Under the pieces are notes generated by a model. It was given only the letters and a program-made list of their open reading frames with translations, was not told the DNA's origin and searched no databases. This document shows positions 38,860-51,039 of a stretch of 64,000 nt of DNA, one piece after another. A program made the position numbers and the translations under genes. This stretch comes from Escherichia coli. GTDB taxonomy: Bacteria; Pseudomonadota; Gammaproteobacteria; Enterobacterales; Enterobacteriaceae. Location: the NCBI RefSeq assembly GCF_003991155.1, contig NZ_CP031293.1; one strand, 5' to 3'. Within the stretch, counting starts at the first letter, position 1, and each line of letters starts with the position of its first letter.

Positions 38860-39050
38860 CGTTTGTGGGGCTAATTTCTTGTCGGAGTGCCTTAACTGGC
38901 TGAGACCGTTTATTCGGGATCCGCGGAACCTGATCAGGCTAATACCTGCGAAGGGAACAAGAGTTAATCTGCTATCGCATCGCCTTTGCGGCGATCGTCT
39001 CTTGCTTCATCCGTCGTCTGACAAGCCACGTCCTTAACTTTTTGGAATGA
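38860..39050 (+). promoter_or_regulatory. TPP riboswitch (THI element) in thiC leader
   Basis: Conserved THI-box elements CTGAGA and AACCTGATCAGGCTAATACCTGCGAAGGGAAC about 100-180 nt upstream of thiC ATG. Confidence 0.85.
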
Positions 39051-40948
<1,898 letters not shown>

Positions 40949-40949
<1 letters not shown>

Positions 40950-41584
40950 TGTATCAGCCTGAGTTTCCTCCTGTACCCTTTCGTTTAGGACTGTACCCGG
41001 TGGTTGACAGCGTACAGTGGATCGAACGTCTGTTGGATGCAGGCGTACGTACTCTCCAGCTACGCATCAAAGATCGGCGCGATGAAGAGGTAGAAGCCGA
41101 TGTGGTGGCGGCAATTGCGCTGGGCCGCCGATATAACGCACGGCTGTTTATCAACGATTACTGGCGGCTGGCGATTAAGCATCAGGCATATGGCGTCCAT
41201 CTGGGACAGGAAGATTTGCAAGCCACCGATCTCGACGCTATCCGTACAGCGGGCCTGCGGCTGGGCGTTTCGACTCATGATGATATGGAAATCGACGTCG
41301 CGCTGGCGGCACGTCCTTCTTATATCGCGCTGGGACATGTGTTTCCGACACAAACCAAACAGATGCCTTCCGCACCGCAGGGGCTGGAACAGCTGGCACG
41401 GCATGTTGAGCGCCTGGTGGATTATCCCACCGTGGCGATTGGCGGTATCAGTCTGCCGCGCGCGCCTGCGGTGATAGCAACGGGTGTCGGCAGTATCGCC
41501 GTCGTCAGCGCCATTACTCAAGCCGCAGACTGGCGTTTGGCAACGGCACAGTTGCTGGAAATTGCAGGAGCTGGCGATGAATGA
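40949..41584 (+). CDS. thiE: Thiamine-phosphate synthase
   Basis: ORF 40946-41584; ATG 40949 ([20 protein letters not shown]), overlaps thiC stop. Confidence 0.9.
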
Positions 41585-42332
41585 CCGTGACTTTATGCGT
41601 TATAGCCGCCAAATCCTGCTCGACGATATCGCTCTGGACGGGCAGCAAAAACTGCTCGACAGCCAGGTGCTGATTATTGGTCTTGGCGGGCTGGGTACAC
41701 CTGCTGCGCTATACCTGGCGGGGGCTGGCGTCGGGACGCTGGTACTGGCAGATGACGACGATGTGCATTTAAGCAATCTGCAACGACAAATCCTCTTTAC
41801 CACTGAAGATATCGATCGCCCGAAATCACAGGTCAGCCAACAGCGACTGACACAGTTGAATCCCGACATTCAACTGATGGCATTACAACAACGATTAACG
41901 GGTGAGACGTTAAAAGATGCGGTTGCACAAGCCGATGTGGTGCTCGACTGTACTGACAATATGGCGACTCGCCAGGAGATTAATGCCACCTGCGTGGCAC
42001 TCAACACGCCGCTTATCACCGCCAGCGCGGTCGGATTTGGCGGTCAGTTGATGGTACTGACGCCGCCCTGGGAGCAGGGGTGTTACCGCTGCCTGTGGCC
42101 AGATAACCAGGAGCCAGAACGCAACTGCCGCACGGCGGGCGTGGTTGGCCCGGTGGTCGGGGTTATGGGCACTTTACAGGCACTGGAAGCGATTAAGTTA
42201 TTAAGCGGTATAGAGACGCCTGCGGGAGAACTCCGACTGTTCGACGGTAAATCGAGCCAGTGGCGCAGCCTGGCTTTGCGCCGCGCCAGCGGTTGCCCGG
42301 TATGTGGAGGATGCAATGCAGATCCTGTTTAA
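41577..42332 (+). CDS. thiF: ThiS adenylyltransferase (E1-like)
   Basis: ORF 41484-42332; start ATG 41577 ([15 protein letters not shown]) overlapping thiE stop; 251 aa. Confidence 0.9.
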
Positions 42333-42516
42333 CGATCAACCGATGCAGTGTGTCGCCGGACTAACTGTTCACGAACTGCTGGAGCAACTCGATCAACAAC
42401 AAGCAGGTGCGGCACTGGCGATTAATCAGCAAATCGTCCCGCGGGAACAATGGGCGCAACATATCGTGCAGGATGGCGACCAGATCCTGCTTTTTCAGGT
42501 TATTGCAGGGGGTTGA
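42316..42516 (+). CDS. thiS: Sulfur carrier protein ThiS
   Basis: 66 aa; MQILFNDQ...QVIAGG with C-terminal Gly-Gly. Confidence 0.9.
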
Positions 42517-42517
42517 G

Positions 42518-43288
42518 ATGTTACGTATTGCGGACAAAACGTTTGATTCACATCTGTTTACCGGCACAGGGAAATTCGCCTCTTCACAACTGATGATGGA
42601 GGCGATCCGCGCTTCCGGCAGCCAGCTGGTGACACTGGCGATGAAACGCGTCAACTTGCGCCAGCACAACGACGCTATCCTCGAACCGCTTATCGCGGCG
42701 GGTGTGACCCTGCTGCCAAATACATCCGGGGCGAAAACAGCGGAAGAAGCCATTTTCGCTGCCCATCTGGCTCGTGAAGCGTTAGGCACAAACTGGCTAA
42801 AATTAGAGATTCACCCTGACGCCCGCTGGCTGTTGCCCGATCCCATCGAAACCCTGAAAGCTGCCGAAACGCTGGTACAACAGGGATTTGTCGTGCTGCC
42901 TTACTGCGGGGCCGATCCGGTATTGTGTAAACGTATGGAAGAAGTCGGCTGTGCAGCGGTGATGCCGCTCGGCGCGCCGATTGGCTCGAATCAGGGACTG
43001 GAAACCCGTGCCATGCTGGAGATTATTATCCAGCAAGCCACGGTTCCGGTGGTTGTCGATGCTGGCATCGGCGTTCCCAGCCATGCCGCGCAGGCGCTGG
43101 AAATGGGGGCCGACGCGGTGTTAGTGAATACGGCGATTGCCGTCGCGGACGATCCCGTCAACATGGCGAAGGCATTTCGTCTGGCAGTAGAAGCAGGCCT
43201 GCTGGCACGTCAGTCCGGACCGGGCAGCCGCAGTCATTTTGCTCATGCCACCAGCCCGCTGACCGGATTTCTGGAGGCATCTGCATGA
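42518..43288 (+). CDS. thiG: Thiazole synthase
   Basis: ORF 42407-43288; start ATG 42518 ([20 protein letters not shown]); 256 aa. Confidence 0.9.
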
Positions 43289-44418
43289 AAACCTTCAGCG
43301 ATCGCTGGCGACAACTGGACTGGGACGACATCCGCCTGCGTATCAACGGCAAAACGGCTGCTGACGTAGAGCGGGCGCTAAATGCCTCGCAACTCACCCG
43401 CGACGACATGATGGCATTGCTATCACCCGCCGCCAGTGGCTATCTGGAACCACTGGCCCAGCGAGCGCAGCGTCTGACCCGTCAGCGATTTGGCAACACA
43501 GTTAGTTTCTACGTCCCGCTTTATCTTTCCAATCTTTGCGCTAACGACTGCACGTACTGCGGATTTTCCATGAGCAATCGCATCAAGCGCAAAACACTGG
43601 ATGAAGCGGATATTGCCAGGGAAAGCGCCGCTATACGGGAGATGGGCTTTGAACATCTGCTTTTAGTCACTGGTGAACATCAGGCGAAAGTGGGGATGGA
43701 TTACTTTCGTCGTCATCTCCCTGCCCTGCGTGAACAGTTCTCTTCACTACAGATGGAAGTGCAACCGCTGGCGGAGGCGGAATATGCCGAGCTAAAACAG
43801 CTGGGTCTCGATGGCGTGATGGTTTATCAGGAGACATATCACGAGGCGACTTATGCCCGCCATCATCTGAAAGGCAAAAAACAGGACTTCTTCTGGCGGC
43901 TGGAAACGCCGGATCGGCTGGGCCGTGCGGGGATTGATAAGATAGGCCTCGGCGCGCTAATTGGCCTTTCCGACAGCTGGCGCGTTGACTGCTATATGGT
44001 TGCAGAACATTTGCTATGGCTGCAACAGCATTACTGGCAAAGCCGCTACTCTGTCTCCTTCCCACGCCTGCGTCCATGTACTGGCGGCATTGAGCCTGCG
44101 TCGATTATGGATGAACGCCAGTTAGTGCAAACCATCTGCGCCTTCCGGCTGCTTGCACCGGAGATTGAACTGTCACTCTCCACGCGGGAATCACCGTGGT
44201 TTCGCGATCGCGTGATTCCGCTGGCAATTAATAACGTCAGCGCTTTTTCGAAAACGCAGCCAGGTGGCTATGCCGACAATCACCCCGAGCTGGAACAGTT
44301 CTCACCACACGACGATCGCAGGCCGGAAGCGGTTGCTGCCGCGTTAACCGCTCAGGGTTTGCAGCCGGTATGGAAAGACTGGGACAGCTATCTGGGACGC
44401 GCCTCGCAAAGGCCATGA
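43285..44418 (+). CDS. thiH: 2-iminoacetate synthase (radical SAM tyrosine lyase)
   Basis: 377 aa; radical-SAM CNDCTYC motif; start overlaps thiG stop (ATGA). Confidence 0.9.
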
Positions 44419-44571: not shown

Positions 44572-44735
44572 AAAATAACGTCTCAGTACGCTATTTCATG
44601 ATTGCCCGCAAAAATATTCATTAATATTTCTATTGTTTTAACAAAGAAGGCACAAGGCTTTAATTGCAAAGCAAGATCGCCGTCAAAACAAGAGTGTGCA
44701 ATAACCGGTTATAATAATTCCACCCTCACCAAAAT

Positions 44736-45386
44736 ATGGTCCAGAACATCATGTCAGCTTACCTAAAAAAAGCGTTATCGATTCATAGTGATGAATTTCG
44801 CCCATACGGAAACGTAATTTCTGCAATAAATGTAGATTCATTGCTTAAATACCTTAAAGAGGAAATTTCTGTACCTGAGGATCAGGTGGCATATGTCAGA
44901 AGCGATGAGCGCTTAAAGCAATACCCCGCCGTGAGCGACATTCAGCGCCAAATCTACGGTGGAATGCCCGTTCAGGCTGGGTACGTTTGTGGGGTAAATA
45001 CCACCCAGGATGGCTTTGAATATCACCAGGGAAGTGAAGTCATTATCGCCGCCAGCGATTTTTTCCTGTTTTTAGGTAAACGAGAGTTGATGCAGGGTGA
45101 CACGTTTAATGGTGAACGTGCAGAGCCGTTTTTCATTCCGGCAAAATCGGTGATTGAACTTTATAGCACAACGCTACATTACTGCCCTATGAGTATCAAT
45201 GCACAACCTTTTAGTGCAGCGATTATTCTTCTTGATGGAACTAATGAAGATATTGATGGCAAGAATAAACCAACAATATTAAGCAAGCGAAATACCTGGT
45301 TTATCGCCCATGAAAGTTTCACTGAGCATCCTTGCCCATTATTAAAAGGGCCGCATCTTTGCGTGAATGATATTATTCATGGGTGA
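44736..45386 (+). CDS. Cupin-fold protein of unknown function (accessory)
   Basis: 216 aa; cupin-like motifs (G..EYHQGSEV..., ...TTLHYCP...); AT-rich; alternative start ATG 44751 (MSAYLKK); no strong SD. Confidence 0.45.
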   Translation: MVQNIMSAYLKKALSIHSDEFRPYGNVISAINVDSLLKYLKEEISVPEDQVAYVRSDERLKQYPAVSDIQRQIYGGMPVQAGYVCGVNTTQDGFEYHQGSEVIIAASDFFLFLGKRELMQGDTFNGERAEPFFIPAKSVIELYSTTLHYCPMSINAQPFSAAIILLDGTNEDIDGKNKPTILSKRNTWFIAHESFTEHPCPLLKGPHLCVNDIIHG

Positions 45387-45390
45387 AAAT

Positions 45391-45410
45391 GGCGAAGATT
45401 TCTCTTCGCC
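45391..45410. terminator. Bidirectional hairpin terminator between convergent genes
   Basis: GGCGAAGA-tttc-TCTTCGCC perfect stem with T-rich flanks on both strands, between stops at 45386 and 45417. Confidence 0.5.
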
Positions 45411-45416
45411 TGTTCT

Positions 45417-48071
45417 TTACCCGGCAATTACCGCCACGCTGTCTTTTGTTCGCACGCGTGGTGGCATGGTCAGACCGCAGCGATCCCACTCATTCCCCTG
45501 CCATGCACTCGCAAAATAATAATGATTCGCTGCCGATGGGTAGACCACGACCGCCAGTTCATTACGCTTTTTTAGTAAAGACTGTGGCAAGGTGAAACGA
45601 TATTCCGGCCAGCCCTTTTCGGCAATTAACGTATCGTTAAGCCAGATAGCAACGCTTCCCTGCACTTGCGGTAAATAAAGCTCAATATCGTCGGTAATCG
45701 TCTCCAGCGCAAAGCGTAACTGATAATGTCCCGGACCACACCACGTCTCCATCCCCTGCTGCTCCCACCCTTTTGTTACCTCAACGGGTCGGGAAACGTT
45801 ATCAACCAGCAGTTGCCAGTGCTTATCCAGCACCACCTCGTGGCGACTTTCCACTACCTGCAATGAAAAGCAACGGGCCTGCCAGGGCTCGATTTGTAGC
45901 GGATAACTTCCCGTGAGATGCTCTTCCAGCACTGAAACCTCTCCCGTTGCAAGATGCCACTCCGACAACTGCCCACTGAGGCCCGGAAAATGTAGCCAGC
46001 CGTAGAGCGGGGTATCTCCGTCGTTAAATACGCTGACGTAACGCGATGTTTCATCCTGGGTAATTCGCGTCCAGACGGCAGTTTTCCGGGAGGGATAGTC
46101 AACAAAGGGGTGATCGTTTTTCAGCGTGTCGGCTAACGTGCTGCACTGCGGTTGCGCCTCAATCAGTTTTTGCAGCCTTTCGGTGAGAGAACGATCTTCA
46201 CCTTTTTCCTCGCTATATGCCGCAAGCTCGCCGGCGATCAGAAGCTGGCCACCAGCGGCGACAAAGTGCTCCAGTTGGCTCAGCGTGGCGGCTGATTTCA
46301 CCACCTTAACGTCCGCTAACAGAAGCGCAGGGAAATTCATGCCGTTAATGCGCGTTCCATCAGCCTGGAGCAAATTCTCTTCATCAATAAAGAAATATTC
46401 AAATCCCTGAGCGCTGAGTTGTTTTGCCCAATATTCGCCTGACTGCCCTTCGTTGCCATCCACGCCACAGTGCCAGAAAGTCCGTTTGGGATAGAGTACG
46501 CCAACATCAACGTACGGCTCTCCCTGCTCAAGAAATTCGGCAAGGCGACCAGATTCCTGAGCAAACCCAGCGTGGAAGGCGTACCAGGGCTGGAAGTTAA
46601 CGCCCGGCGCAAAATCAAAACGCGGGTTACTTAATACGTCGTCATTTGCCTCGCCATCCGTCAGCCAGAACGCGTGCATCAAAAATTGCCGCGCACCGAG
46701 GAGGTGATGGCGCAATGCCTGCAACCGGATGTCATGCAGTGAAATTTCCCACTGCCCGGCAGCAAAATGTGTGCATGGCTTCACCCGCGCATAATATTGC
46801 TCAACAATGCACCCTTTACGCCCATGAGCGCGCGCCACAGAGTCGCCAACCTTCGCCGCCATCTGCGGCTCGCTATTTCGCGAATCGACAGCCGTAATAT
46901 CCCGCCAGCCATCGAGAGCAAAGTAATCCATAGCAAAATTACACCGGTTATCTTCGGTGATGATTTTACTGGCGAAATTCCAGCTACTAACGTGACCTAA
47001 TACTTCATGACCACTTAGCTGTATTCCCCGCTGGTGCGCCCATTCTGACAACGTACCAAAAAAGGCCTGCATCGCCTGGCTGGAATAACAGGAAAGCAGC
47101 TCACAGCGCCGACGTGCGGTACGACTGCCAATGTCCATAACTAACGACATCAGGTTTTCTGCCAGGCAGTAAGGTGCCTGTTGCAATGCATCAACAAACC
47201 TTTTTTCATACATTAAGGAGGATTTGACCGCGCCAGTATGTTCATTCCATTGCCAGAAACAGGCGTGTGGCTGGTCGAAAAAGAGATACGCCACCGTCTT
47301 ACCAAAATGATCGCCAAAAGCGCGGGCGTAAGGTTCATAGCCGACACGAATAAAATTTTCTGCCGCTTCGGGCATCAGGTAATTAATCATCCGTGAGGTC
47401 AAGCAACGCGCCGCGGCAAAGAGCGTCACTACCGTTTCCGCACCCCAGGGCAGGTCGCTTCCCGTAAAGGTGACCTCAAATTCCTCTGTGGTTGCTTTGG
47501 TGATGCGGGCCAATGAAGAAACATCAACAATTTCATCTGCATTGCACTCCCCTGATGAAGAGGTGGCATACGCTGCGACAATTTCCCATTCATCCCACGC
47601 CGGTTTACCGCCAGCAAAAATCCACTCCATTCCACACTGCTGTAGCGCCTGCGCATCCGCAGAGCGGATCCCGGAAAGGTGACATGTCAGTACATCTGCA
47701 GACCGGCTGGACTGGCTCCAGAAAAGATGGCGCTCACGCAGCTCATCTCTCCCTTCAACGGTCCTTCCCCCGGCGTGCCCGGAAAGCCAGTTGTAATCAT
47801 CGTAGATGCCCATCATCAGCCCAATATTGGCAGCTTTATCAGCCGTGTAGCGACAGGCTGCCAGCCACTCCTCACTGAGATAACTCTCCAGCGGAAGACT
47901 CAGACGTGCGGCTATCTGAAATGAACCATACCCTCCCGCCTGCAGTTGCCTCAGTTGGCTGTCGATCTGCTTTTTGTCCGGAATGGTATGCCAGAACCAG
48001 TAGGTTGCAGGCAGGTGCCATACATCAGGATTTTTAAAGTTTTGGCGTGCCTGTGCTAACGAATCATTCAT
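45417..48071 (-). CDS. Large cytoplasmic hydrolase-like enzyme, probable glycoside hydrolase with C-terminal beta-sandwich; family unassigned (accessory)
   Basis: ORF 45417-48104; preferred start ATG 48071 (MNDSLAQARQNF) preceded by AAGGGGGA and overlapping upstream permease stop; 884 aa; no signal peptide; aromatic-rich N-terminal region. Confidence 0.55.
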   Translation of the reverse strand: MNDSLAQARQNFKNPDVWHLPATYWFWHTIPDKKQIDSQLRQLQAGGYGSFQIAARLSLPLESYLSEEWLAACRYTADKAANIGLMMGIYDDYNWLSGHAGGRTVEGRDELRERHLFWSQSSRSADVLTCHLSGIRSADAQALQQCGMEWIFAGGKPAWDEWEIVAAYATSSSGECNADEIVDVSSLARITKATTEEFEVTFTGSDLPWGAETVVTLFAAARCLTSRMINYLMPEAAENFIRVGYEPYARAFGDHFGKTVAYLFFDQPHACFWQWNEHTGAVKSSLMYEKRFVDALQQAPYCLAENLMSLVMDIGSRTARRRCELLSCYSSQAMQAFFGTLSEWAHQRGIQLSGHEVLGHVSSWNFASKIITEDNRCNFAMDYFALDGWRDITAVDSRNSEPQMAAKVGDSVARAHGRKGCIVEQYYARVKPCTHFAAGQWEISLHDIRLQALRHHLLGARQFLMHAFWLTDGEANDDVLSNPRFDFAPGVNFQPWYAFHAGFAQESGRLAEFLEQGEPYVDVGVLYPKRTFWHCGVDGNEGQSGEYWAKQLSAQGFEYFFIDEENLLQADGTRINGMNFPALLLADVKVVKSAATLSQLEHFVAAGGQLLIAGELAAYSEEKGEDRSLTERLQKLIEAQPQCSTLADTLKNDHPFVDYPSRKTAVWTRITQDETSRYVSVFNDGDTPLYGWLHFPGLSGQLSEWHLATGEVSVLEEHLTGSYPLQIEPWQARCFSLQVVESRHEVVLDKHWQLLVDNVSRPVEVTKGWEQQGMETWCGPGHYQLRFALETITDDIELYLPQVQGSVAIWLNDTLIAEKGWPEYRFTLPQSLLKKRNELAVVVYPSAANHYYFASAWQGNEWDRCGLTMPPRVRTKDSVAVIAG

Positions 48072-49563
48072 GGCTTTCCCCCTTCTTAATCGGCGGAACA
48101 TCACAATGACAAATGTATGTCAAAATGGCATACAGCGCCGCGCCCACCAGCATCGCCACCACTACGCCAATATTTGCTGTCGCAAACACGCTGGTTTTGG
48201 TTTCTGCCGTCAGTAAGAAGCCGACCAGGTGAGCAATCCACGGATCGCCTGAGGTGATGGTTCCCATGCCGATAACCGATGCAACAAACAGCGATAATAA
48301 TGCCGTCCAGCGACCGTTACGCCCGCCAAGCCCCGCGGGCTGCGCCATATCAGTGTTCCAGTGCAAGCGTTTTTGCCGGGCAAAGTCGACAAGCTGGATT
48401 GCGCCCATCGATCCCAATACGACGGATACCGTTGCCAGAAAAGACTGAAAGGTTGCGAGGAACGAGTCAGAAACAAACAATAAGTAGAAGGCACCGAATG
48501 CGATAATGACCGCATTGATAGCAGTGGTGGTTGAACGACTGGCTGGAACGCCCATTGCCAGCAATGCGAGGCCTGAGCTGTAAACACCTGTAATGGCTGC
48601 CGCCAGCAGGGAGATGATGATCACGATTGAAAACGGCACATAGAACCAAAACGGCAGGAACGAGGTTAAGGCCGCAATCGGTTCGGACGCTGCTGCTCCG
48701 CTCAGTTCCGGGTTACTGTCGGCCAGCAGGGCACCTAAAATCAGCAGGATGGAAACCGGAAGCGAAATCCCAAGCGACGTCCAGAAAATCACTTTCCCGG
48801 CAGCGGTTTTGCGCGGCAGGTAACGGGCGAAATCACCGCCATAGTTGAGAAAGCCCAGCCCAACCATCGTCATTGCCATCACCATGCCGCCGATAAACGT
48901 TAAAAATCCGGCATCGGGAGCAGCACCCGCCTGCGACCAGTGAATATGTGGCAGGATCAGGATAATAAAGATGATGCTCATTCCGCCCGTTAACCATGCA
49001 ATATACTTTTCTACCTTCATGATGAGCTGGTGGCCGTAGATGGCAACGGACATAGTCAATACTAAGGTCACCACGAACCAGCCCAACAGGCACCCTAAGG
49101 TAGGGTGACCGTTTTCTGCTGCAAATACGGTTGGCCATAACCGGGCAAAGAGGGCGGCGCCAGTGGTCGAGGACAACGTAATAATGGTGATTTTCCAGCC
49201 CATATTGGAAATATAGGCAAATAAAGTGGGGATCTTATTCCCATGATAACCAAAGGCAAATCGGGTCTGCGTTAAGGTAGGCAGCCCGGTGCGTGGCCCA
49301 CCAACGGCCAGAACCCCCACCAGCGTGCTGGATAAAAAATAGCCCACGACACCGGCAACAATCGCCTGCCAGAGGCTTAACCCCAGTGAGTAAACATAAA
49401 TCCCATAGGTAATACCGAGGATGGATACATTCCATGAAAACCAGATCGGGAAAAGTCCGGCAGGCGAACCATAACGTTCGTTATCACTAACCGGGTTTAC
49501 CCCATTGGTTTCCACCTTCATCGTACCTGAAACATCAGATGGGTTCTGGGCTTGGCTCGTCAT
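48064..49563 (-). CDS. NCS1-type (nucleobase/nucleoside/vitamin cation symporter-like) permease (accessory)
   Basis: ORF 48064-49755; preferred start ATG 49563 (MTSQAQNPSD) preceded by GAGAGGA; 499 aa, about 12 TM; N-terminal P..ER...F..WFS.N motif resembling NCS1 family. Confidence 0.55.
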   Translation of the reverse strand: MTSQAQNPSDVSGTMKVETNGVNPVSDNERYGSPAGLFPIWFSWNVSILGITYGIYVYSLGLSLWQAIVAGVVGYFLSSTLVGVLAVGGPRTGLPTLTQTRFAFGYHGNKIPTLFAYISNMGWKITIITLSSTTGAALFARLWPTVFAAENGHPTLGCLLGWFVVTLVLTMSVAIYGHQLIMKVEKYIAWLTGGMSIIFIILILPHIHWSQAGAAPDAGFLTFIGGMVMAMTMVGLGFLNYGGDFARYLPRKTAAGKVIFWTSLGISLPVSILLILGALLADSNPELSGAAASEPIAALTSFLPFWFYVPFSIVIIISLLAAAITGVYSSGLALLAMGVPASRSTTTAINAVIIAFGAFYLLFVSDSFLATFQSFLATVSVVLGSMGAIQLVDFARQKRLHWNTDMAQPAGLGGRNGRWTALLSLFVASVIGMGTITSGDPWIAHLVGFLLTAETKTSVFATANIGVVVAMLVGAALYAILTYICHCDVPPIKKGESHE

Positions 49564-49564
49564 T

Positions 49565-50782
49565 TTATTTCCTCTCATATTGAGCAAGACGTGATAGTAC
49601 GGCTTCATACTCAGGCATGTTCGATGCGCCTTCCCGCTCGACCGCCAGAGAAGCAAACGCAGAGGCAAATTTTGCTGCACTGAGCAACGGCTGGCCCTGC
49701 GCAATCGCCGCAGCAAACGCACCGTTAAACGCATCCCCCGCACCGGTGGTGTCAATACTTACTGCTTTTAACGCTGGAATATGGGTAAATTGTTCACCGT
49801 CATAAATCAGCGCCCCTTGAGAACCCATCGTAATAATGATGTTTTTTGCCCCCAGGGATTTTATGGTTTGCGCCGCTTCTTTCGCACTCTCGATATCATT
49901 AATCTCGACACCGGACATCAGCGACGCTTCTGTTTCATTCGGTGTCAGATAATCAACATATTGCAGGCATTCTTTTGCCTGGTCAGAATAAGGGGCTGGG
50001 TTAAGGATAGTTTTCACGCCCGACCGATGTGCCATATTTAGTGCCAGCGTGGTTGCTTCAAAGTTATTTTCCAACTGTGTCAAAAATATTTTGGCGTCCG
50101 TCAACTCACCCGCAATACTGGCAACTTCCGCTTCAGTGATATATTGATTGGCGCCAGAATAAATCGCGATCTTGTTTTCACCAGCAGGCTCCGAAACATA
50201 TATTATGGCGCTTCCTGTTTTATGCTCTTCGTCCTGGTAGAGGGTAAAGCTGCGGATATCGGATGAAGAGAGATGATCATGCGCCATCTGGCCGAAATGG
50301 TCGTTGCCAACTTTGCCGACGAAGTGTACCTGGACGGGACATTTGCTGGCTGCCATCGCCTGGTTTGCGCCCTTGCCGCCAGGTCCAATGATGGTATTGC
50401 TGGCAAGAATTGATTCGCCGCTTTTAGGGAAGCGATCAACTTTGGCAATAATATCGACATTAAAAGATCCTAATATACAAACTTTGCTTATCATTATTTT
50501 CCCTTTTTTGTTTGTCATCGAGTTTTTTCGCCAGTTGACCTGATTGAGGAACTTTTCAATAGAGGTACCAACGTTATTAACGGGCTGAGAATGGAAAATC
50601 CGACGCAATATTATTGCTCCGCCGTGACAACGCTCAACACCCCCTTGCTCCGCTAATAAATTTAAATCATTACGGATCGTTTCTTTACTGACAGAGAATA
50701 AGATGGCGAGTTGATTAACCGTAGCCCGCTCATGTTTATTCAAATATGCCAATATTTGACGTTGTCTTTCTTTCCCAAACAT
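49565..50782 (-). CDS. Fusion protein: N-terminal DeoR-type HTH domain + PfkB-family ribokinase-like sugar kinase (accessory)
   Basis: 405 aa; N-terminal RQILAYLNKHERATVNQLAILFSVSKETIRNDL (DeoR HTH); kinase motifs GPGGKGANQA, NPAP, TPNETEA and DTTGAGDAFNGA collinear with RbsK; SD GAGGTGA before ATG 50782. Confidence 0.7.
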   Translation of the reverse strand: MFGKERQRQILAYLNKHERATVNQLAILFSVSKETIRNDLNLLAEQGGVERCHGGAIILRRIFHSQPVNNVGTSIEKFLNQVNWRKNSMTNKKGKIMISKVCILGSFNVDIIAKVDRFPKSGESILASNTIIGPGGKGANQAMAASKCPVQVHFVGKVGNDHFGQMAHDHLSSSDIRSFTLYQDEEHKTGSAIIYVSEPAGENKIAIYSGANQYITEAEVASIAGELTDAKIFLTQLENNFEATTLALNMAHRSGVKTILNPAPYSDQAKECLQYVDYLTPNETEASLMSGVEINDIESAKEAAQTIKSLGAKNIIITMGSQGALIYDGEQFTHIPALKAVSIDTTGAGDAFNGAFAAAIAQGQPLLSAAKFASAFASLAVEREGASNMPEYEAVLSRLAQYERK

Positions 50783-50985
50783 GATTTCACCTCACGTAAC
50801 ATTTATATCTTTTGTAATTTTCTGATTCCATGAATCCTTTCACACTACCATCACGAAAACAAAAACAAACGGGAATTTTTGGAGGAAAGGTTTTTTTATT
50901 CAATGGGATAGTGAGAGGGGAATGTTGTTTTGAAAAAACACTCCCGAAAAATGCGTGGGAAAGCGCTTTCAATCGTAAACGGAAT

Positions 50986-51020
50986 GCAAAAAAAAGCCAG
51001 TCAGTGTGACCTGACTGGCT
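50986..51020 (-). terminator. Rho-independent terminator of rpoC
   Basis: Minus-strand hairpin GCCAGTCAGGTCACACTGACTGGC followed by TTTTTTTT. Confidence 0.8.
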
Positions 51021-51039
51021 TATTTCTTAAGAAGAGCGA

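Follow-up and report, generated by a model that had tools for sequence, protein, structure and literature searches.

An NCS1-family permease encoded with a ribokinase and a glycosidase-like protein at the thiH-rpoC junction of Escherichia coli: a candidate riboside uptake system

The 64,000-nt stretch of Escherichia coli DNA analyzed here (contig NZ_CP031293.1 of assembly GCF_003991155.1; hereafter, the window) contains the thiamine biosynthesis genes thiCEFSGH on the plus strand (39054-44418) and the rpoC and rpoB genes on the minus strand (from 51040). Between thiH and rpoC lies an accessory segment, or island, which includes three consecutive minus-strand genes. These code, in order, for a DeoR-type helix-turn-helix (HTH) domain fused to a ribokinase, a permease of the NCS1 family, and an 884-amino-acid (aa) glycosidase-like protein (Table 1). 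The stop codon of the kinase gene and the ATG of the permease gene, which is preceded by a GAGG Shine-Dalgarno sequence, are separated by 1 nt, and the end of the permease gene overlaps the start of the third gene by 8 nt (ATGAATGA). Taken with the gene neighborhoods of permease orthologs in other species, this arrangement makes it fairly probable that the permease takes up a ribose-containing, nucleoside-like glycoside ("riboside") for breakdown by the other products of a small catabolic operon. Literature searches, including those with the four RefSeq protein accessions, found no paper on the permease subfamily, the 884-aa protein family, or the island.

Table 1. Features of the accessory segment at the thiH-rpoC junction (positions are those of the window)
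Feature	Position	Strand	Remarks
Accessory segment	44576..51036	.	Whole 6.46-kb segment with four genes; replaces yjaZ-sroH of K-12
DUF4867 cupin protein	44751..45386	+	211 aa; convergent with the operon; Pfam PF16161, E = 6.6e-54
Hairpin between the convergent DUF4867 and glycosidase-like genes	45391..45410	.	8-bp stem, 5 GC pairs, in the 30-nt gap between the stop codons; possible bidirectional terminator
Glycoside-hydrolase-like protein, predicted cytoplasmic	45417..48071	-	884 aa; TIM barrel (GH106-like) and beta-sandwich domains; ATG 48071 taken as the start
NCS1-family permease	48064..49563	-	499 aa; ATG at 49563, stop 48064-48066; RefSeq WP_000203761.1
DeoR-type HTH fused to ribokinase domain	49565..50782	-	405 aa; HTH at approximately residues 1-75, ribokinase domain at residues 99-399; first gene of the operon
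Predicted promoter/operator region of the kinase-permease-glycosidase operon	50783..50993	-	211-nt non-coding stretch from the rpoC terminator to the kinase ATG
CRP-like site (half-palindrome), TGTGAaaggatTCAtg	50844-50829	-	Matches the consensus at 8 of 10 positions; located 62 nt 5' of the kinase ATG
Predicted intrinsic-terminator hairpin 3' of rpoC	50994..51021	-	11-bp stem, 6 GC pairs, followed by the T-run TTTTTTGCAT

An earlier note on this DNA had described the middle gene as coding for an NCS1-type permease of 499 residues and roughly 12 transmembrane (TM) helices, without giving its strand, and had proposed a comparison with the Pfam family Transp_cyt_pur. That description is borne out. 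The protein matches PF02133 (Transp_cyt_pur) with an E value of 3.3e-27 and 95.8 bits, residues 24-399 aligning with model positions 1-375 of 440. Its AlphaFold2 model, built on 23 orthologs (mean predicted local distance difference test score [pLDDT], 81.3), has 12 membrane helices, of which TM1 (34-45/48-58) and TM6 (220-234/239-246) are broken as in the LeuT/NCS1 fold. The helices were counted from the secondary structure of the model; a Kyte-Doolittle window count, with its 18 overlapping peaks, was too noisy for this purpose. The closest folds in the Protein Data Bank (PDB) are those of CodB (7qoa) and Mhp1 (2jln, 4d1a, and 2x79), with E values of ∼1e-10. These two are the sole NCS1 transporters among the fold matches and score approximately four orders of magnitude better than the other LeuT-fold families. 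They were recovered by fold comparison only: structural alignments show 15 to 18% identity, and searches of PDB sequences with either the permease or its 23-sequence subfamily profile returned zero matches, even at E values of up to 10. The N-terminal motif listed in the earlier note, P..ER...F..WFS.N, is present in all its elements but with a different spacing, P-x4-ER-x7-F-x2-WFS-x-N (P24-VSDN-E29R30-YGSPAGL-F38-PI-W41F42S43-W-N45). At least 76 of 77 orthologs share R30, F38, W41, F42, W44, and N45, and 135 alignment columns in total, motifs in TM1, TM6, and TM8 among them, reach this level of invariance. The exact protein cluster of the permease contains 245 sequences, and its orthologs, at 58 to 99% identity, are found in ∼80 species, which places the feature far beyond chance. 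An automated open reading frame (ORF) call moved the start of the permease gene out to TTG 49755 (563 aa; 48064-49755, minus strand); the added part runs into the end of the kinase gene, is absent from all orthologs, and is an artifact.

Profile, fold, and nearest structures thus agree that the permease is a member of the NCS1 superfamily (nucleobase:cation symporter-1; TC 2.A.39), and it belongs to none of the curated subfamilies; nor is it an ortholog of CodB, AllW, or CytX. It scores 89.4 bits against the NCBIfam ncs1 subfamily model TIGR00800 (cutoff, 353.1) and 40.8 bits against TIGR02358, the model for CytX, a putative transporter of hydroxymethylpyrimidine (HMP; cutoff, 309.85). The two outcomes that the earlier note had named as fatal to its proposal, membership in another transporter family and close orthology to a characterized cytosine or allantoin permease, were not found. 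In BLASTP comparisons, the protein is 33% identical to CodB over 63 aa, with no codA gene nearby, and 22% identical to the allantoin transporter AllW over 124 aa, its own neighbors being the ribokinase fusion and the glycosidase-like protein. The RefSeq entry, which has identical coordinates, is named "purine-cytosine permease family protein"; this label and the related "cytosine permease" are probably misleading.

The kinase domain scores 313.5 bits against the NCBIfam ribokinase equivalog model TIGR02152 (cutoff, 299.65) and is 35% identical to RbsK from E. coli K-12. Every strong match in a search of PDB sequences is a ribokinase (E ∼ 1e-54). The N-terminal part resembles DeoR-type repressors (GlpR/AgaR/SrlR), and the Pfam combination HTH_DeoR plus PfkB is recorded for the Salmonella ortholog. 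All the ribose-contacting residues of RbsK, as listed previously (PMC9604405), are retained in the alignment: N14, D16, G41, G42, K43, N46, E143, and D255. In nucleoside kinases, the space taken by K43 and E143 is occupied by the nucleobase (PMC7797080). The presence of these two residues means that the island kinase should act on free ribose, after hydrolysis of the glycoside. The same residues, K43 and E143 included, are retained in the corresponding kinases from Streptomyces and Bifidobacterium, and all these proteins look like true ribokinases that should use the free sugar.

The product of the third gene shows no significant Pfam match and no match to PDB sequences. Its similarity to the GH106 family (Pfam PF17132; E = 0.026, limited to the N-terminal 100 residues) remains below significance. 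The structural model (pLDDT, 89.9) is that of a TIM-barrel glycosidase, whose best structural matches are GH106 alpha-L-rhamnosidases, GH42 galactosidases/arabinopyranosidases, and GH5 mannosidases. Carboxylates that are invariant throughout the family, E356 and E424 among others, lie at the ends of the barrel strands. With the solved GH106 enzymes, of which the rhamnosidases BT_0986 (5mqm) and that from Novosphingobium (6q2f) are the nearest structural relatives, the model shares the fold and the domain architecture at 13 to 17% identity. The island protein is, however, ∼150 residues shorter than these rhamnosidases, is predicted to be cytoplasmic rather than secreted or periplasmic, and is encoded with a ribokinase instead of rhamnose genes. 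No signal-peptide-like N terminus was seen when the sequence was judged by eye, and the protein looks like a cytoplasmic glycosidase. The family is compact, with 91 representatives at an E value of <1e-30 among 1.84 billion clusters; ∼1,200 more-distant relatives are probably GH106-like. As with the permease, the automated ORF was too long, reaching a GTG at 48104 (895 aa versus 884 aa) through an artifactual extension that is absent from orthologs.

To compare gene neighborhoods, one genome per species (100,044 species) was scanned with two signature peptides of the permease subfamily, which yielded 80 loci with permeases in the identity range given above. Neighbors within 4 kb of the permease were counted with tblastn, in place of crude ORF calling that had produced spurious antisense ORFs in the high-GC actinobacterial loci. 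In 70 of the 80 loci, the permease gene is accompanied by a gene for a GH106-like enzyme, an ADP-ribosylglycohydrolase (ARH), or a DeoD-type phosphorylase, and a PfkB-family kinase is encoded in 46 of the 80. Type A loci (32 in all) code for a homolog of the 884-aa protein, mostly directly downstream of the permease, and come from Escherichia, Streptomyces, Amycolatopsis, Mycetocola, Aeromicrobium, Bifidobacterium, and some Succinivibrionaceae. A PfkB gene was detected in 15 of these 32, and in both actinobacterial loci read with Pfam (Streptomyces and Bifidobacterium), genes for a PfkB kinase and a LacI-type regulator precede the permease. Type B comprises 29 loci from Sutterella, Parasutterella, Succinivibrionaceae, and Anaerobiospirillum, in which genes for an ARH (PF03747; E = 9e-57) and then a PfkB kinase lie directly upstream of the permease, in several cases with a GntR regulator. 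The 9 loci of type C, found in Cedecea, Ewingella, Enterobacter sp. strain Ag1, Klebsiella sp., Erwinia sp., Vibrio xiamenensis, and Celerinatantimonas, have a gene for a DeoD-type purine nucleoside phosphorylase (TIGR00107; 292 bits versus a cutoff of 232) 22 nt upstream of the permease and a divergent gene for a YeiL-like regulator. No such neighbor was seen in the remaining 10 loci, approximately half of which are truncated contigs.

Type B loci differ from type A loci in the kinase as well. In the type B kinases, N14 is replaced by Phe, Val, or Leu and K43 is replaced by Cys, changes that open the base-excluding pocket, so that these enzymes may phosphorylate the riboside itself before an ARH-like step, by the logic of psuK/psuG. 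The same replacements are found in the kinase domain of P0115, a natural 814-aa PfkB::NCS1 fusion from metagenomes (locus L010, 396-2840; locus L011, 519-2963) with PfkB at the N terminus of the permease, and the fusion suggests that in that lineage the imported compound is itself the substrate of the kinase. Among the permeases, 16 positions are fixed within type A and within type B but differ between the two (116, 119, 245, and 323 are among the positions that differ), and type C agrees with type A at 14 of the 16. This sharing of residues modestly favors a substrate that could be cleaved by a DeoD-type enzyme, that is, a purine-type N-riboside. The conserved GntR/ARH/PfkB/NCS1 permease module was observed to be widespread in gut Sutterella and their relatives (nine loci and others). 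Some genomes encode two or three permease paralogs (L027 and L044; the sets L026/L064, L025/L087/L029, L035/L086, and L037/L088), arranged as a tandem upstream of the glycosidase gene or located separately with different partner enzymes. In four Streptomyces loci, ORFs located ∼2 to 4 kb upstream of the permease were taken by eye to be a terpene synthase and an S-adenosylmethionine-dependent methyltransferase, presumably a 2-methylisoborneol-type pair that is probably unrelated to the permease cassette.

One orthologous transporter is thus encoded beside three non-homologous enzymes that cleave glycosidic bonds, and its substrate is therefore likely to be a glycoside; the accompanying kinases of the PfkB/ribokinase family point to ribose as its sugar. 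Phosphorylases and ARH-like proteins are ribosyl-bond-cleaving families and the third partner is a predicted glycosidase, so that import of a riboside would be the most economical explanation of all three contexts. Like known transporter-linked riboside operons, these loci combine a transporter with a bond-cleaving enzyme and/or a PfkB kinase in an arrangement that is conserved across taxa, and in the window the gene junctions are coupled. The analysis establishes the family and fold assignments, the layout of the operon, the conserved linkage of the genes, and the active-site signature of the ribokinase; from these we infer the direction of transport, the substrate class, the order of the steps, and the regulation as follows. 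The NCS1 permease would import the riboside by cation symport, and the 884-aa GH106-like glycosidase would cut its glycosidic bond in the cytoplasm, releasing free D-ribose and an aglycone. The ribokinase domain could then phosphorylate the ribose, and the resulting ribose-5-phosphate would enter the pentose phosphate pathway, while the fused DeoR-type HTH domain would probably repress the operon until the substrate or a product is present. The aglycone, presumably a common base, would be processed by housekeeping salvage. Of the proposal in the earlier note that the permease imports a thiamine- or nucleoside-related compound, the nucleoside-related part is thus the best guess.

The permease might instead import a nucleobase of the purine or cytosine type, the neighboring kinase and glycosidase serving an unrelated sugar pathway. 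Such a role would fit the description of PF02133 ("permease for cytosine/purines, uracil, thiamine, allantoin"), the names "purine-cytosine permease family protein" or "cytosine permease" assigned by the NCBI annotation pipeline PGAP, and the fact that the nearest solved fold is that of the cytosine transporter CodB; next to a purine nucleoside phosphorylase, as in type C, a base importer could also serve base salvage. However, the similarity to CodB is limited to the short BLASTP match given above, and no codA-like deaminase or other base-metabolizing gene is adjacent. Base import would also leave unexplained the translational coupling to the kinase and glycosidase genes and the recurrence of glycosidic-bond-cleaving enzymes and PfkB kinases in 70 of the 80 species. 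Furthermore, the sugar must enter the cell somehow, and the E. coli island codes for no other transporter; the existence of a PfkB::permease fusion is likewise at odds with a base substrate. We therefore consider a base importer unlikely.

Riboside import remains the preferred reading, and several observations weigh against it. The structures nearest to the 884-aa protein are alpha-L-rhamnosidases, at the low identity given above, and among TIM-barrel glycoside hydrolases, none that cleaves N-ribosides or ribofuranosides is known to us; the sugar could therefore be other than ribose. The kinase clears the ribokinase cutoff only narrowly and scores below that of the enterobacterial RbsK model NF008353 (277.8 versus 341). 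The island contains no gene for catabolism of the aglycone, and four or five full-length loci in other species have none of the three neighbor enzymes. Stand-alone permeases from Rhodococcus and Kibdelosporangium have neighbors that appear by eye to be a glycerophosphodiesterase, a Ser/Thr kinase, and a 6-phosphogluconolactonase and that give no functional hint. Some genomes hold both GH-linked and ARH-linked permease paralogs, 59 to 63% identical (Succinatimonas hippei, L026/L064; bin E22, L025/L087), so the three contexts need not share one substrate. Finally, the permease gene of E. coli IAI39 (NC_011750.1) carries a nonsense mutation, W209* (TGG to TGA), in an otherwise intact island, and the permease is annotated as two coding sequences in this and four more genomes (CE10, AR_0013, N32, and OZ546943). 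The island occurs in <1% of complete E. coli genomes, and together with these disruptions this indicates that selection for it in E. coli is weak.

The first of these points lead to another explanation, namely, that the permease imports a glycoside or sugar conjugate with a non-ribose sugar (for example, a rhamnoside-like or another heterocycle-sugar compound) and that the "ribokinase" phosphorylates a different furanose or pentose. The folds closest to the glycosidase would suit such a substrate, as would the narrow margin of the kinase score and the finding that genes for DUF4867 proteins, one of which is present in the island, mostly lie next to those for aldose/ketose isomerases and FGGY kinases (PMC11968277). 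Nevertheless, the island kinase and its actinobacterial counterparts keep all the ribose contacts of RbsK and its strong PDB sequence matches are all ribokinases; the alternative partners of the permease, DeoD-type phosphorylase and ARH, are ribosyl-specific families; and the island has no genes for catabolism of rhamnose or other hexoses. On balance, a non-ribose sugar appears improbable.

The last points bear on the possibility that the island no longer functions in E. coli and is a decaying remnant. The operon was found in 49 of 5,426 complete E. coli genomes, always in the chromosome, at a single site, and at ≥99.9% identity. This low frequency, the W209* mutation in IAI39, and the two-part permease annotations in CE10 and three further genomes could all reflect decay. 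On the other hand, all four genes are intact in the window, with coupled start/stop junctions. The permease is annotated as a single unsplit gene in the other 44 island genomes, at 99.9 to 100% identity, and full-length uninterrupted matches or ORFs are present in Escherichia whittamii (88 to 98% protein identity) and in Salmonella (89% for the 884-aa protein). A functionless remnant is therefore very unlikely, and an operon for riboside uptake and breakdown is retained as the working interpretation.

The signals around the operon support a transcription unit of its own, as the earlier note had also proposed: the genes lie on the strand opposite to thiCEFSGH, their junctions are coupled, and a strong terminator hairpin follows rpoC. 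The hairpin of this terminator, which is predicted to insulate the operon from rpoBC read-through, falls in sequence specific to the island, as the match to K-12 breaks off 3 nt past the rpoC stop codon. The 211-nt region between the hairpin and the kinase gene is ∼78% identical to its Salmonella counterpart. No strong sigma-70 consensus promoter was detected in it, and the CRP-like site may point to catabolite control of the operon. The only thiamine pyrophosphate (TPP) riboswitch in the 38- to 52-kb part of the window, at 38873-38973, precedes thiC on the other strand from the permease, in agreement with the earlier statement that the permease is not under the control of the thiC riboswitch.

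The distance from the end of thiH to the permease gene is 3,646 bp, matching the 3.6 kb of the earlier note, which had tentatively linked the permease to thiamine. Some NCS1 members do carry thiamine or HMP, namely Thi7 and CytX. In Salmonella, the PfkB kinase of the STM4065-4066-4067 operon phosphorylates aminoimidazole riboside (AIRs) and thereby satisfies a thiamine requirement (PMC3161100, citing Dougherty and Downs 2003), so that a riboside importer could incidentally feed thiamine synthesis. A dedicated importer of thiamine, HMP, or another thiamine-pathway compound such as AIRs, functionally tied to thiCEFSGH, is nonetheless disfavored by the evidence. The score against the CytX model is far below its cutoff (40.8 versus 309.85), the permease gene is on the opposite strand from the thi genes behind its own promoter region and terminators, and the island lacks a TPP riboswitch. 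Only 2 of the 80 loci, both from Escherichia, have thiH within 4 kb of the permease, and thi genes adjoin the permease only in the versions from Escherichia, Salmonella, and Superficieibacter; in all other loci, enzymes that cleave ribosyl bonds and PfkB kinases are the conserved neighbors. The thiamine part of the earlier proposal is thus not supported, and a thiamine/HMP transporter was rejected as highly improbable. The permease lies next to thiH because the 6.5-kb segment is an insertion or replacement, taking the place of yjaZ-sroH at the thiH-rpoC junction; its nearness to the thiamine operon is a positional coincidence only. A riboside importer could affect thiamine metabolism only through phosphorylation of AIRs by an STM4066-type kinase, and the K43 and E143 residues of the island ribokinase, which exclude a base-bearing substrate such as AIRs, argue against this route.

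In BLASTN comparisons with K-12, homology ends at window position 44575, 157 nt past thiH, and resumes at 51037. The K-12 counterpart of the island is the 1.0-kb yjaZ-sroH segment (NC_000913.3, 4189577-4190578). The island and yjaZ-sroH are mutually exclusive alternatives at this junction: strains with the island are without yjaZ and the SroH small RNA and have a different, non-homologous rpoC terminator (hairpin 51021-50994). The same segment occupies the same rpoC-thiH site in some Salmonella enterica strains, in E. whittamii, and in a cryptic Escherichia clade. In Superficieibacter, the operon is found at this site without DUF4867, and thiH is located ∼6 kb beyond it. The inserted segment includes DUF4867 only in its Escherichia and Salmonella versions (five loci); the other loci lack this gene. 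For this metal-binding cupin, a role as a sugar mutarotase or ring isomerase has been suggested, and its only studied members (SftX/SqvB) were inactive in mutarotase assays (PMC11968277).

An origin of the island as a mobile element is not supported. All ORFs of ≥150 aa are accounted for and none codes for an integrase or transposase, no flanking repeats were noticed, and the divergence from the Salmonella copy (85 to 90% nucleotide identity) tracks that of the flanking thi genes (78 to 85%), being similar or smaller. The identity of the E. whittamii island likewise tracks its flanks. The island therefore has the appearance of a long-established allelic alternative to yjaZ-sroH, not of a mobile element inserted recently. 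Its GC content is uneven, at 42% in the DUF4867 gene (39% at third codon positions), 46% in the kinase gene, and 52.5% in the permease and glycosidase genes, compared to 54 to 56% in the flanking core genes, which suggests a mosaic origin.

A more specific version of the riboside reading can be put forward only tentatively, as possible rather than probable. The subfamily would be a dedicated importer of one specific riboside, perhaps a purine-type or modified nucleoside, that different lineages dismantle in different ways: by phosphorolysis with a DeoD paralog, by 5'-phosphorylation followed by an ARH-like enzyme, or by direct hydrolysis with the 884-aa protein. The latter would then found a new glycoside hydrolase family, as the first TIM-barrel, GH106-like cytoplasmic enzyme acting on ribosides, and the HTH::ribokinase would combine sensor and enzyme in one protein.

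The permeases described here form a tightly conserved NCS1 subfamily, represented in both Proteobacteria and Actinobacteria, whose gene neighborhoods consistently point to a riboside, and an uncharacterized but confidently modeled glycosidase family is linked to it. If the proposed function is correct, a bacterial type of riboside transporter would be added to NCS1, which could help assign a function to the long-unexplained modules of ARH, PfkB kinase, and transporter that resemble yegTUV. It would also define a nutrient niche, ribose from a nucleoside-like compound, that is used by asaccharolytic gut bacteria such as Sutterella and by a minority E. coli/Salmonella lineage.

Several characterized or predicted systems resemble parts of this one. 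CodB (cytosine; 7qoa) and Mhp1 (hydantoin; 2jln) share with the permease the PF02133 domain and the 12-TM LeuT-type fold with broken TM1 and TM6, but the permease is encoded without codA or a hydantoinase gene and its predicted substrate is a riboside, not a free base. A precedent for this substrate class is provided by the yeast NCS1 importers Fui1 (uridine) and Nrt1 (nicotinamide riboside), which are eukaryotic Fur-type members and are not encoded in operons with catabolic enzymes. The logic of a transporter co-transcribed with an enzyme that breaks a ribosyl bond is seen in E. coli xapAB (xanthosine phosphorylase and permease) and psuKG-psuT (pseudouridine kinase, glycosidase, and transporter), the latter with a PfkB kinase, and the type C loci, with a DeoD-like phosphorylase and a permease, are a direct analog of xapAB. 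In these systems, however, the transporters belong to the major facilitator superfamily (MFS) or the concentrative nucleoside transporter (CNT) family and not to NCS1, and the cleaving enzyme encoded in the window is a GH106-like TIM-barrel protein instead of a phosphorylase or a PsuG-type glycosidase.

The yegTUV genes of E. coli (with yegW) and STM4065-4067 of Salmonella represent the same module as the type B loci, a GntR regulator, an ARH, a PfkB kinase, and a transporter; STM4065 and STM4067 presumably fill the transporter and ARH-family roles around the AIRs kinase STM4066. For the E. coli proteins, the predictions are a nucleoside:H+ symporter for YegT and an ADP-ribosylglycohydrolase for YegU, with YegV as a putative sugar kinase (PMC10819704). 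In contrast to the permeases studied here, YegT is an MFS rather than an NCS1 protein, and the island in the window codes for a GH106-like enzyme and a true ribokinase-type kinase in place of an ARH and a K43C-type kinase. By these comparisons, the system at the thiH-rpoC junction can be regarded as an uncharacterized variant of the transporter-linked riboside catabolic operon, with an unusual glycosidase as the partner of the permease.

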